NCBI RefSeq assembly: GCF_003334335.1
Contig: NZ_QOWQ01000003.1
Origin: Escherichia coli
Lineage (GTDB): Bacteria; Pseudomonadota; Gammaproteobacteria; Enterobacterales; Enterobacteriaceae
Length of the DNA stretch: 64,000 nucleotides
Reading direction: 5' to 3' (one strand)
The position numbers and the translations under genes are program-made. Of this stretch, positions 58,574 through 63,807 are shown piece after piece. The notes under the pieces were generated by a model. The model worked only from the letters and a program-made list of their open reading frames with translations. It had not been told where the DNA came from and searched no databases. Each line of letters opens with the position of its first letter. Position 1 is the first letter of the stretch.

Positions 58574-59323
58574 TTACACATCCCGATAACTCCCCAACCG
58601 ATAACCACGCTGAGCGATAGCACCTTTCAACGACGCTGATGTCAACACATCCAGCTCCGTTAAGCGTGGGAAACAGTAAGCACTCTGACGGATAGTATTA
58701 TCGATAAACGCCGGATGACACATCACCTCCAGCGAACGATCACCCCGATGGCCTGCGTCATCCAGCACTTGCAGGAACAGCGACTCACTGATCTCTTCAC
58801 CGTAGAATGCACTGCTGAATCCCTGGGTAGTGCGCAGGTTGACCGGCAAATCAAACGCCATCTGACGATCCGCCCGCAACGCAATGCCCTGCTCTGCCGC
58901 AAACCTGGCAACAATCGGGAAAATCTGCGGGAACATATGCACATGATGATGGCTATCAAGATGCGTAGGTTTGCGTCCAAATAGCTCAATGAAACGCAAA
59001 TACTGACTGACAAGCTCCTGAGTAATTTCTTCCAGCGGTAAAGCATCTTCTTCTGCCAACTGCCAGATCCATTTTCCCAGCACACCATCGCGGGTTAACC
59101 CCGGCATAGCTGTCAGTGGCTTACCCATAGTAAGGACAAAGTGCATCCCTATGGCCAGACTCGGTTCATCACGACTCAACTGCACCGCATGGTCAATAGC
59201 CTGCCCATTCACCAGCGCCGTCGTCGACGTGACAATCCCATTGCGACAGGCCTCGATAATGCCGTAGTTCTGACCTTTGCTTAAGCCAAAATCATCGGCA
59301 TTAACAATCAGTAAGCGTTCCAT
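58574..59323 (-). CDS. chbG: Chitooligosaccharide deacetylase (YdjC family)
   Basis: 249-aa ORF; last gene of the chb operon. Confidence 0.9.
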
Positions 59324-59335
59324 AATCAGCCTCGG

Positions 59336-60688
59336 TTAATGTGCTTTTTTAAGCTCTGCGATGCAGTCGGCAAAGTTTGGCAGCCATTTCTCGTGCGCCA
59401 GAATCATCTCGCGTGCCAGCAGCTCAGCATCGCGATCGGAATGCACCAACGGACTAAGGTTTAGCGCCAGTAACACATCGTTAAATTCTCCGCTAAGTGC
59501 GGCGTTACTGGCAGCAATCTCGAAGCCTTTAATGGTGTGAATCAGCCCCATTACTTTATCATCGAAATGCGTAATGCGCGGATGTGGCGTCGCGCCATCG
59601 CGCCCCAGCTTACAGGTCATTTCTACTGCCCAGTCTGCCGGAATATTATCAATCTGCCCATGATGCGGGATATTAACGTAATGTTCTGCTTGCTTGTCGT
59701 TGTAGATAGCGTTGATCACTTCGCATGCTGCATCAGAGTAATAAGCCCCACCGCGCTGTTCCAGTTCTTTCGGCTTAACTTTCAGCTCAGGATTTTTATA
59801 CAGCTCAAAAAGTTGTTTCTCGACTTTCTGTACTACCTGCGCTCGTGCGCCGCCTTTGTAGTATTCGCCCATTTCAATAGCCAGCATCTCTTTCTGCTTG
59901 AAGTAATACAGCAGATAAGAACATGGCAGCAGATTCAACGAACGAATTAAGCCCTCACTAAATGGCAGATCGAAAATATTTTTTACAGAGGACGCTTTTA
60001 ACTGCCCTGACGCCACACCATCAAGCAATTCGGCAAAGCGCGACTTGCCATTTACCAGCACATCCTTAATGAACACCATATGGTTGAGGCCGAACAAATC
60101 GATAGATAAATCATCGCTGTCTTTCAGCATCAGAACATCGCGAATAAACATCTTCATGCCGATCGGAATATTACACACGCCGATAAAGCGTTTAAATCCG
60201 GTATGACGATAAACGGCTTCAGTGACCATTCCCGCCGGGTTAGTGAAGTTAATCACCCATGCATTCGGACAAAGTTCTTCGACATCTTTTACGATGTCAA
60301 AAATCACCGGAATGGTACGCAGACCTTTAAACAAACCGCCCGCGCCGTTGGTTTCCTGACCAAGATAACCATGACTTAATGGAATACGTTCATCCAGTTC
60401 ACGCGCCGGTAATTGGCCAACGCGCAGTTGGGTAGTAACGAAATCAGCATCTTTCAATGCTTCGCGGCGATCCAGCGTTTTATAAAGCTTCATCGGGACG
60501 CCAGCGTTATCAATCATCCGTTGGCAGAGATCGAAAATAATATCCAGTTTCGCTTTACCACCTTCGACATCCACCAGCCATAATTCGCTGACCGGCAATT
60601 CGTGATAACGCTTAATAAATCCTTCCAGTAACTCCGGGGTATAGCTGCTCCCGCCACCAATAGTGACGACTTTTAATTTCTGGCTCAT
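59336..60688 (-). CDS. chbF: 6-phospho-beta-glucosidase (GH4, NAD/Mn-dependent)
   Basis: 450-aa ORF of glycoside hydrolase family 4. Confidence 0.95.
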   Translation of the reverse strand: MSQKLKVVTIGGGSSYTPELLEGFIKRYHELPVSELWLVDVEGGKAKLDIIFDLCQRMIDNAGVPMKLYKTLDRREALKDADFVTTQLRVGQLPARELDERIPLSHGYLGQETNGAGGLFKGLRTIPVIFDIVKDVEELCPNAWVINFTNPAGMVTEAVYRHTGFKRFIGVCNIPIGMKMFIRDVLMLKDSDDLSIDLFGLNHMVFIKDVLVNGKSRFAELLDGVASGQLKASSVKNIFDLPFSEGLIRSLNLLPCSYLLYYFKQKEMLAIEMGEYYKGGARAQVVQKVEKQLFELYKNPELKVKPKELEQRGGAYYSDAACEVINAIYNDKQAEHYVNIPHHGQIDNIPADWAVEMTCKLGRDGATPHPRITHFDDKVMGLIHTIKGFEIAASNAALSGEFNDVLLALNLSPLVHSDRDAELLAREMILAHEKWLPNFADCIAELKKAH

Positions 60689-60792
60689 AATTTCTCCCTT
60701 CAGTACAGAATACTGATATCTGGCATATCTGCCCCCCCGGACATAAATAATCCAGCAACAGGACAGATATGTGAATTGTCAGGTATAACGAC

Positions 60793-61635
60793 TTACTGAT
60801 TAAATTCAGTCAATTTCTTACGATAGCTCTTAGGCGTAAAGGACGTTAATTTCTTAAACGTTTTAATAAACAAACTCGGGCTACTATAACCGGCCTCAAA
60901 CGCAATATCCGTCACTGAATAGTTGGTCATTTCCAGTTGTTTTTTGGCAAAATTAATACGGATTTCATTAATAATCTGCATTGGCGTTTTGCCATAATAT
61001 CGTTGAGTCGCTCGCGTCAAATATTCCTGTGATTTGGCTGACAACGCCACCATATTCTCCAGCGCCGATTCACTAAACTGCTCTTTATCATGCATCTTTT
61101 CTACCGTACTTTTCAGCCACTGCGGTACATCATCAATCACCTGTTCTTCGCGGTAATGACGTAAACGGTTAATGACATAAAAAGTAACCATCTCAACAAA
61201 CTCTTCCAGCCCTGTTTCGCGGAAATTCAATGAAGAAATCACTGTTTCCACATAGGTGAGAAAAGCGTTATTGGTCCGGTATACCTGCGAAGCGACAAAG
61301 CAATAAGGCAACAATGGCAGGTAATGCTGCTCAAAAAAGCGTTTACTGATCCCAACGTTCAATATGCGCGTGGCACCAAACTCATAAAAACTTTGATGGT
61401 GCGAACCTAACGGAATAAAAACAAAATCGCCCCGTTCCAGTAACACGCGCTTACCGTTAATCTCCTGGAAATAACGCCCGGTTAATACCAGAGTAAATTC
61501 ATAATAGTCGTGCTGATGCAGTCCGCTGATACTCTCAGTTTTGTTATAGATAAACACATGGAAGTTTTTGCCATTAAACAACTGCTGTTCTCGGGCAGTG
61601 GCAATTTCCGGCGCGTTAATCACTGGCTGCATCAT
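60793..61635 (-). CDS. chbR: AraC-family dual regulator of the chb operon
   Basis: 280-aa ORF with cupin N-terminus and AraC helix-turn-helix C-terminus. Confidence 0.92.
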
Positions 61636-61642
61636 CGACTCC

Positions 61643-61993
61643 TTATGCCTTCAGTTTTTCATGAAGCTCAATTAATTCAGTAATCAGTTCACGCGCAAGC
61701 ATGGACGTCATTAAATGATCCTGAGCGTGGACCAGCACCAGACTCACTTTCATCTTACCTTCGCCCGCATCGCCTTCAATCAGTTTCGTCTGTACCAGAT
61801 GCGCTTCATTCAATGCCATCCGTGACTGATCCATCATGGCTTTTGCTGCGGCAAAATCGCCCTGCTTCGCCTGTTTCAGTGCCGCATACGCCAGGCTGCG
61901 CGCTTGTCCGGAGTTGATGATCAGCCCCATCACCACTTCTTCCAGCTCTTCAGCTTCCGTTTGCGTATCGGGAATGTTATCGAGATCCATCAT
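61643..61993 (-). CDS. chbA: PTS chitobiose-specific EIIA component
   Basis: 116-aa ORF of the lactose/cellobiose EIIA family. Confidence 0.95.
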
Positions 61994-62043
61994 ACATCGT
62001 TCCTCTCTTTTCTTACCGGCACGATTACCCGTACCGGCATCGA

Positions 62044-63402
62044 TTAAAATTTCAGGGCGTTAGCGATATCTTCTTCGCTCTCTTCTTTATCAATCGCATT
62101 TTGTGCTTTGTTAGCCACCACAACAAAGGGCAGATAAATTAACGTTGCGATGCCAAGGTTGAAGAGTGCGACCAGCAATGCGGCGACGCTACCGTTGGTG
62201 TTAAAGAAGGCTCCCAGACCGGTTGGCATGGTCCACGGTGCAATATTGGTCACCGGAGGAATAATGCCCATGTAGTACGCTGCGAGGGTGATTGCCGCCA
62301 GAATCGGTTGTACCAGTACAAACGGGATAAACATCACCGGGTTCATGATAATTGGCAGACCAAACAGAATCGGTTCGTTAATCTGGAAGATGCCGGACGG
62401 CAGCGCCAGTTTTGCCACCTGACGATAATCAGCACGGCGAGAGGCGATAAAGATAGCCAGGATCAGGCCTAAAGTCGCACCACTGCCCCCAAGGAAAATA
62501 AAGGAGTCCAGCATCGGCTTGGCCCAGATATGGAAGGTCTTACCGGCTGCCAGCGCCGCTTCGACGGAACCATATTGCTGATAGGTCGCGATATTTTCCA
62601 GTGCCCACGGCGTCATAATGCCGTTGTCCAGTGCGGTCAGCGCCAGCGCGCCATGAATACCGAAGAACCAGAGCAGTGGAACAAAGATCACATAGGCCCA
62701 GCCCACCACGCTACCCAACGATGCCAGTGGGGTTGAGATGGTATCCATAATGATCTGATGGAAGTTGGTGCCCCAGGTATTCAACGCCCAGGCAATAATC
62801 CCCATCACGGAAAGAATAATAAAGCCGGGAATTAATGCCGAGAAGGAACGCGATACTGAAGCAGGTACGCTGTCGGGCAGTTTAATGACCCAATTGCGGC
62901 GGACAATAAAGGTAAACATTTCTGCCACCACCAGGCCAATAATAATCCCGGAGATGATATTCGCCCCACCTAACCAGTTTGCACCAACCGCATAGGCCTC
63001 ACCGACACTATATGGGGTGACGGTCATAAATGCTGCAACGGATAACAACCCAGCCGCCAGCGCATCGACTTTAGGCTCTTCTGCCAGCGCCATGCCAATA
63101 AAGAACGGTGCCATTAAAGACATTATTCCTAATGTTCCGTTATATACGTTGCCGCCAATACCTTTCAGACCATTAAGTGTTTCAATGGTTGAGGCGTCGA
63201 GGCGAATACCTAAGGAATAAAAAAACGACCCCTCCCCAAAGCTTAGAAAAACGTTGTTAATTAATACAAACATGGCCCCCGCAAGGGTTAACGGCATTAA
63301 GCGAATAAAGCCATTTTTGATTGCATTAACGTGTGGCTGCTTTCCTATTTTAACTGCAAAAGGGAGGAGTACCTTTTCAAGCGATGCAATAACATTACTC
63401 AT
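62044..63402 (-). CDS. chbC: PTS chitobiose-specific EIIC permease
   Basis: 452-aa polytopic membrane ORF of the Lac/Cel EIIC family. Confidence 0.95.
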
Positions 63403-63486
63403 AGAAAAATACCCTTAAAAACCGCAATTTAAATATTGCGGTATTGATTTATGAAATAACTCTTTGACGGGAAAATTTAAAATAAA

Positions 63487-63807
63487 TTAATTTGCTGCGG
63501 CTTTTTTAATCGCTGCAACCGCAGCCTTAAGCACGCCTAAACCATCGACTTTGCCATAAAGCAGCGAGTCAATTACTTCAACCGGTTTGTTGGGTAACAA
63601 ACGCTGGATTTCGGGCAACATATAAGCAATCTGCGGCCCTAATAACACGACATCGGCATTCTGACCTTTTTCACCAGCCAGTGTTTCCGGAAATGCTTCA
63701 ATAATGACCGGAACTTCATATTTTTCTGCCTGTGCGCGCATTTTTGATACCAGTAAAGAGGTAGACATGCCCGCAGAACAAAACAGATAAATGTGTTTCT
63801 TTTCCAT
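63487..63807 (-). CDS. chbB: PTS chitobiose-specific EIIB component
   Basis: 106-aa ORF with phosphorylatable Cys in the N-terminal [10 protein letters not shown] motif. Confidence 0.95.

Follow-up and report, generated by a model that had tools for sequence, protein, structure and literature searches.

Introduction

The chbBCARFG operon, which encodes the uptake and breakdown of N,N'-diacetylchitobiose, is among the best-characterised sugar systems of Escherichia coli, and here we compare with it the copy carried by a stretch of 64,000 bases of E. coli DNA (contig NZ_QOWQ01000003.1; in the following the window, numbered from its first base). The mechanism of this operon is established knowledge, and applied to the present sequence it would run as follows: (i) ChbB, ChbC and ChbA, the IIB, IIC and IIA enzymes of a phosphotransferase system (PTS) of the lactose/cellobiose family, would import and phosphorylate N,N'-diacetylchitobiose, (ii) ChbG would remove one acetyl group to yield monoacetylchitobiose-6-phosphate, (iii) this compound would serve as the inducer of ChbR and as the substrate of ChbF, a hydrolase of glycoside hydrolase family 4 (GH4), (iv) the chbB promoter would be repressed by NagC and ligand-free ChbR and activated by inducer-bound ChbR together with CAP, and (v) the mRNA of the chbB-chbC spacer would pair with and deplete the small RNA ChiX, by which the chitoporin gene chiP would be de-repressed. 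Cellobiose would relieve neither of the two repressors, and for this reason the wild-type allele would not support growth on cellobiose.

Published work describes the dual role of the monoacetylchitobiose-6-phosphate made by ChbG, as ChbR inducer and as ChbF substrate (PMC9402603), the joint repression of the operon by NagC and ChbR (PMC3551598) and the function of the chbB-chbC spacer as a sponge for ChiX (PMC7815308, PMC4355480). Chitobiose, the natural substrate, induces the operon (PMC4488073, PMC13267602, PMC4086706), which is not cryptic for this sugar, and mutations in NagC and ChbR allow growth on cellobiose (PMC4488073). Growth on cellobiose is seen only after mutations that affect NagC and ChbR or after insertions upstream of the promoter (PMC4488073, PMC13267602, PMC4086706), in agreement with a preliminary description of the window, according to which the operon must be mutated before cellobiose can be used.

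Identity of the operon

The comparison suggests that the locus is, with high probability, the standard wild-type chbBCARFG operon of E. coli in its cellobiose-negative form. Open reading frames (ORFs) were listed for positions 57000-64000 of the window, and proteins were assigned to families by means of NCBIfam equivalog models and Pfam, the Pfam assignments being those precomputed on an identical contig. Six minus-strand ORFs lie between 58574 and 63807 in the order chbB-C-A-R-F-G, all of them free of internal stops and equal in length to their counterparts in K-12 MG1655:

chbB, 63487-63807, minus strand: PTS enzyme IIB for N,N'-diacetylchitobiose, 106 amino acids; NF007796 at 226 bits against a cut-off of 157; no nucleotide differences from K-12
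chbC, 62044-63402, minus strand: PTS enzyme IIC, 452 amino acids; NF007634 at 969 bits against a cut-off of 760; carries Arg110Pro
chbA, 61643-61993, minus strand: PTS enzyme IIA, 116 amino acids; NF007768 at 241 bits against a cut-off of 148; identical to K-12
chbR, 60793-61635, minus strand: dual repressor/activator of the AraC family, 280 amino acids; NF007633 at 585 bits against 264; Pfam domains Cupin_2, HTH_18 and HTH_AraC
chbF, 59336-60688, minus strand: 6-phospho-beta-glucosidase/monoacetylchitobiose-6-phosphate hydrolase of GH4 (an NAD+/Mn2+-dependent family), 450 amino acids; PF02056 and PF11975
chbG, 58574-59323, minus strand: chitooligosaccharide monodeacetylase of the YdjC family, 249 amino acids; NF002559 at 400 bits against 227; Pfam domain YdjC; identical to K-12

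For five of the six proteins (ChbB, ChbC, ChbA, ChbR and ChbG) the NCBIfam equivalog models match from end to end and far exceed their curated cut-offs, and for the PTS subunits the models TIGR00853, TIGR00410 and TIGR00823 are over their cut-offs as well. The three domains of the lactose/cellobiose class of PTS, PTS_IIB (PF02302), PTS_EIIC (PF02378) and PTS_IIA (PF02255), are found on separate proteins. ChbF matches no NCBIfam model at cut-off; it aligns at 503 bits over residues 1-440 to the solved GH4 6-phospho-beta-glucosidases PDB 5C3M and 1S6Y, and its two Pfam domains, Glyco_hydro_4 and Glyco_hydro_4C, place it in GH4. RefSeq labels the genes at identical or near-identical loci chbB, chbC, chbA, chbR, celF/chbF and chbG and locates them between katE and osmE; the neighbour of chbB is osmE in K-12, as well as in E. 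coli C and in a contig from an independent assembly of run ERR271229, whereas in the present DNA osmE lies beyond the window edge.

The operon of K-12 MG1655 (b1738-b1733, formerly celABCDF-ydjC) has the same genes in the same order, with the same lengths, spacers and flanking genes. Within the region 58317-64000, 3 of 5,684 bases differ from K-12, all three in the operon; chbB, chbA, chbR, chbG and all non-coding DNA are identical. The three bases affect ChbF residues 46 and 212, at which K-12 has the minority alleles P46 and I212, and ChbC residue 110, which is Arg in K-12 and in all other E. coli sampled.

The features by which the E. coli chb operon is defined are present wherever the sequence allows a check, and the locus, a textbook one that is already known, had been annotated accurately. 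The preliminary description was right to see here a chitobiose PTS operon that has an AraC-type regulator inside it, and gave its gene content, order, strand and coordinates correctly, and its boundaries (58574-63807) and the undisrupted state of the six ORFs are exact. Its statement that the operon is complete at the window edge applies to the coding part and fails for the regulatory region, since the window includes 193 bp of the 298-bp osmE-chbB spacer; likewise, 'intact' applies to the genes as ORFs only, ChbC having Pro in place of an otherwise invariant Arg at residue 110, a rare substitution that the preliminary description does not mention. As a wild-type copy of an operon so well characterised, the locus matters little in itself.

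The assignment to the cellobiose-negative form is carried by chbR and the DNA upstream of chbB, both of which were compared with the wild-type, cellobiose-negative K-12 sequence and not with a table of mutant alleles. Over its 843 nucleotides chbR has no difference from wild-type K-12 and hence no gain-of-function substitution, and ChbR residue 238 is kept as Asn; N238S is reportedly a chbR allele of the Cel+ type, i.e. one that permits growth on cellobiose. Upstream of chbB, all 193 bp at 63808-64000 are identical to K-12. No IS1, IS2 or IS5 insertion upstream of the chbB promoter is present in 63808-64000, the rest of the spacer being judged by proxy only, from the ERR271229 contig; in this contig, which encodes ChbC P110 and shares 4,957 bases with the window without a single difference, the osmE-chbB spacer is 298 bp long, identical to K-12 and without an insertion sequence (IS) element. 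With chbR and the upstream 193 bp both matching wild-type K-12 base for base, the window shows no Cel+ allele; the two places that the preliminary description had singled out for comparison with such alleles, chbR and 63808-64000, contain none. The Cel+ mutant alleles of the chb/cel operon concern the same locus and arise from exactly this wild-type sequence, and their activating changes are seen neither in chbR nor in the regulatory DNA of the window or, by proxy, in its remainder on the ERR271229 contig.

No evidence contradicts the identification itself. The following points nevertheless qualify it: (i) ChbC Arg110Pro affects a residue conserved without exception in the 84 orthologues aligned, and transport might be impaired despite the intact ORFs, (ii) nagC and the last 105 bp of the regulatory region lie outside the window, (iii) the binding sites in this region are putative, having been assigned by inspection, and (iv) the chbB promoter was not reported by a scan for the sigma-70 consensus, which found 5 promoter-like sites against 8.5 in shuffled sequences. 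As for the last point, the scan is uninformative: a promoter of this kind, which depends on an activator and has a poor -35, is expected to escape it.

The Arg110Pro substitution of ChbC

The difference in chbC comes down to a single nucleotide polymorphism (SNP):

ChbC residue 110, codon 63075-63073, SNP at 63074: G on the plus strand in the window, C in K-12 and other E. coli; Pro in place of the Arg of K-12

We take R110P to be a real, rare and lineage-specific natural polymorphism, the only such feature of the operon; to judge from alignments and models, it would lie where a short loop joins two transmembrane helices. Among the 5,389 complete E. coli genomes in which the site is matched, none contains an exact copy of a 57-mer with the SNP at its centre, and the P110 protein is found on 4-7 public contigs, against at least 1000 for the R110 protein. 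The chb locus of E. coli C (NZ_CP020543.1) differs from that of the window at one base over 7,501 compared, and this base is 63074; the complete-genome matches ranked 3-20 have scores equivalent to a single mismatch over 6,001 bases.

Each of the 84 full-length orthologue representatives aligned (80-100% identity) has Arg at residue 110; they include sequences from Escherichia, Salmonella, Enterobacter, Klebsiella, Proteus, Providencia, Pantoea, Serratia, Vibrio and Aeromonas. Residue 110 sits within a nearly invariant AEERKVD motif and is the sole invariant ChbC column at which the window departs; at this sampling depth 39% of ChbC columns are invariant. In an AlphaFold model of ChbC, which is of low confidence (mean predicted local distance difference test score, pLDDT, 62) and was used for helix and loop context only, residues 108-113 form a loop between helices 70-107 and 114-126. 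ChbC of Bacillus cereus (PDB 3QNQ), the structural prototype of the lactose/cellobiose-family PTS EIIC, can be aligned over residues 5-442 (199 bits) and has the same inferred helix-loop-helix context around residue 110. This distant homologue has Tyr at the residue aligned with E. coli R110, and the Arg therefore belongs to the enterobacterial/Vibrio orthologue group and not to the family as a whole. In the loop 108-113 a proline would be expected to be less disruptive than in a helix.

The alternative that survives best is that the operon is intact as ORFs and functionally impaired: R110P would weaken or abolish chitobiose uptake, the lineage would be chitobiose-negative or slow, and the control of ChiX and chiP would be blunted. 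We consider this doubtful, although it has several points in its favour. The substituted residue is the only invariant column changed in the window; the absence of P110 from the 5,389 site-matching complete genomes and its presence on a handful of contigs are as expected for a mildly deleterious variant; and IS1 interrupts chbC in two complete genomes, in one of them probably, that are near-identical apart from this, which shows that natural loss of chbC occurs. These points are countered by the placement of the residue in a short inter-helix loop and not in a helix, as indicated by the AlphaFold model and the alignment to 3QNQ, and by the Tyr of B. cereus, according to which the position varies in the wider family. 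In addition, with 39% of the ChbC columns invariant, a random substitution would often land on one of them, and private SNPs occur elsewhere at similar density, the nearest complete genomes differing at about 5 bases in the 25 kb upstream of the operon (an estimate from bit scores). A measurable impairment or alteration of transport by R110P is a tentative suggestion, and it is on balance improbable, if conceivable, that the substitution is a natural variant by which the chitobiose PTS permease has lost its function or changed its specificity.

If such a defect were real, R110P would mark a small E. coli lineage that is losing or retuning chitobiose uptake, and with it ChiX/chiP control, while its six ORFs still look intact; a natural ChbC defect of this kind would be of interest to specialists only. 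More generally, intact ORFs do not guarantee function, and ChbC R110P is a candidate for a natural transporter defect.

Loss of chbC by insertion can be seen in isolate F829 (NZ_OY754443.1, about 5711-6476, corresponding to window position 63200 or so), in which the RefSeq annotation has chbC split by IS1A near codon 66 in a chb locus that is otherwise near-identical. Because IS1A splits chbC in this isolate, natural inactivation of the transporter gene does occur. NZ_CP148427.1 gives the same two-piece match, with an IS1A transposase listed there, and is likely similar to F829.

The reading of the G at 63074 as a sequencing or assembly error, which would fit a single base found in no complete RefSeq E. 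coli genome, is very unlikely: the exact P110 protein is deposited under four NCBI accessions on seven contigs of different lengths, with OWD62089.1 and RCQ67763.1 among the P110 proteins, the ERR271229 assembly, made independently, is identical to the window throughout their shared bases, and 63074 is not within a homopolymer run.

Regulatory region of chbB

Of the osmE-chbB spacer, the window holds the part proximal to chbB. Regulatory motifs were located in this spacer by inspection and pattern matching:

63926-63921, minus strand: -10-like TATACT, found by pattern matching
near 63914, minus strand: transcription start, as deduced from the -10-like TATACT
63984-63966 and 63961-63943, minus strand: two 19-bp direct repeats of the ChbR type, AGGTCAAGGAGAAACAATT and AGGTCAAAGAAATACTATT, identical at 15 of 19 positions, with a period of 23 bp
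64005-63990, minus strand: CAP-like site TGTGA-N6-TCATA, its right half inside the window, cut at base 64000
64036-64014, minus strand: palindromic AT-rich box TTAATTATCTTCGCGAATTATTT, the upstream NagC-like box, outside the window
about 63922-63900, minus strand: downstream NagC-like box, TTT-N9-AAA, over the deduced start and 114 bp downstream of the first box

The chb promoter is reported to have two NagC operators 115 bp apart, with the transcription start inside the downstream operator; the span between the operators holds a CAP site and a pair of 19-bp ChbR repeats. The layout observed here would fit this arrangement, and on this basis and from inspection we presume that the motifs are NagC, ChbR and CAP sites. 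The two ChbR-type repeats were found by direct pattern matching and were not reported by a general repeat search.

The preliminary description had referred to 63808-64000 as the promoter. This stretch is only a part of the promoter and regulatory region: at its distal end the CAP-like site is interrupted by the window edge, and the upstream NagC-like box is situated past 64000. Since the window ends inside the CAP-like site, a promoter analysis confined to it misses the left half of this site and everything upstream. Most of the zone in which activating insertions occur likewise lies beyond 64000; such IS elements are reported to land 72-180 bp upstream of the start, and about 15 bp of this zone would fall inside the window. 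With the upstream NagC box, the landing zone of IS elements and nagC all outside, the window alone cannot settle the cellobiose question. That the strain carries a Cel+ activated chb operon through changes outside the window, namely an IS element upstream of base 64000 and/or loss of nagC, is nonetheless extremely improbable, for although nagC, about 105 bp of the regulatory region and most of the reported insertion zone are in the missing stretch, chbR with its wild-type Asn238 and the 193 bp inside the window match K-12 throughout, as does the full spacer of the ERR271229 sister contig, which has no IS element.

The ChiX sponge and the chbR-chbF spacer

The spacer between the first two genes of the operon contains the features of the known ChiX decoy:

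63403-63486, minus strand: chbB-chbC spacer of 84 nt, known sponge/decoy for the small RNA ChiX
63471-63460: core CCCGTCAAAGAG, a 12-nt exact complement to ChiX nt 47-58
63442-63421: hairpin ACCGCAAT-N6-ATTGCGGT, just downstream of CCCGTCAAAGAG, reported on the plus strand in the scan

For ChiX the sequence annotated in K-12 was used, and the chance expectation of such 12-nt matches is estimated at about 0.02 in the 5.3-kb operon. Duplex energy was dropped as a criterion for the sponge: when ChiX was paired with 84-nt windows of the operon mRNA, the spacer gave -36 kcal/mol, compared with -44 to -50 kcal/mol in several coding windows. The assignment is based instead on the exact 12-nt complement found where the sponge is documented.

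The chbR-chbF spacer (60689-60792, 104 bp) is identical to K-12 and contains a G7 homopolymer run (CCGGGGGGGC, about 60740-60731, minus strand). It also has a promoter-like TTCACA-17-GATTAT at 60775-60747 on the operon strand, which may have arisen by chance, the scan having returned fewer sites than shuffled sequences. This site could give chbFG some independent transcription.

ChbF alleles

The two remaining differences from K-12 in the operon are both in chbF:

ChbF residue 46, SNP at 60553: Ala in the window, Pro in K-12
ChbF residue 212, SNP at 60055: Val in the window, Ile in K-12

The exact ChbF protein of the window is found on at least 1000 contigs and belongs to a cluster of 5,626 members, of which all those sampled have A46 and V212. 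The K-12 protein is in a cluster of 479 members with P46, and among the sampled members only K-12 has I212. From the predominance of A46/V212 among the sampled E. coli it follows that the ChbF of K-12 is the unusual one; with P46 and I212 it is a minority variant in the species and not a typical 'wild-type' reference for the enzyme.

Relation of the window to K-12 and other genomes

Over its 64,000 bases the window is collinear with K-12 MG1655 1,757,813-1,821,812, with 19 SNPs and no gaps in the alignment, and the source strain is, as judged by this alignment, very close to K-12, though neither K-12 itself nor one of the complete genomes compared. Twelve of the 19 SNPs are non-synonymous, nine of them outside the operon (window positions 1748, 3501, 19400, 20392, 35484, 45900, 46390, 56323 and 58182). 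The changes at these nine positions are SufS D322Y, SufD G160D, YdiO T6N and M337V, BtuD T88M, KatE D90A and I710V, and two in the arpB pseudogene. All three differences in the operon are non-synonymous, from which a signal of selection might be read; we rejected this, given the 12 of 19 across the window and the fact that three events are too few.

E. coli C, so close to the window at the chb locus, shows about 150 mismatches elsewhere in the window and an alignment that is broken at about window base 22214. At 9424-11449 of the E. coli C locus examined (corresponding to window position 22200 or so) an IS3 splits the equivalent of ydiQ, annotated as an electron transfer flavoprotein, and yniA is frameshifted. 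The window, which aligns to K-12 without gaps, has no IS3 at about 22200, and E. coli C is not its source strain.

By megablast the chb region 58000-64000 was matched in all 5,426 complete E. coli genomes and covered to at least 80% in 5,392 of them. With this 6-kb query the median number of matches per complete genome was 38. A mobile element in the operon was set aside as the cause of this number, the repetitive extragenic palindromic (REP)-type repeats of the katE-chbG spacer being the probable cause. The neighbouring gene and the matches in this spacer are:

katE, 56055-58316, plus strand: converges on chbG
58315-58449: REP-type repeats of the katE-chbG spacer, located where the convergent katE and chb transcripts end
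58315-58403: match to naRNA4, below threshold
58407-58449: Rfam ES036 (CssrF), 55.5 bits against a gathering score of 37.6

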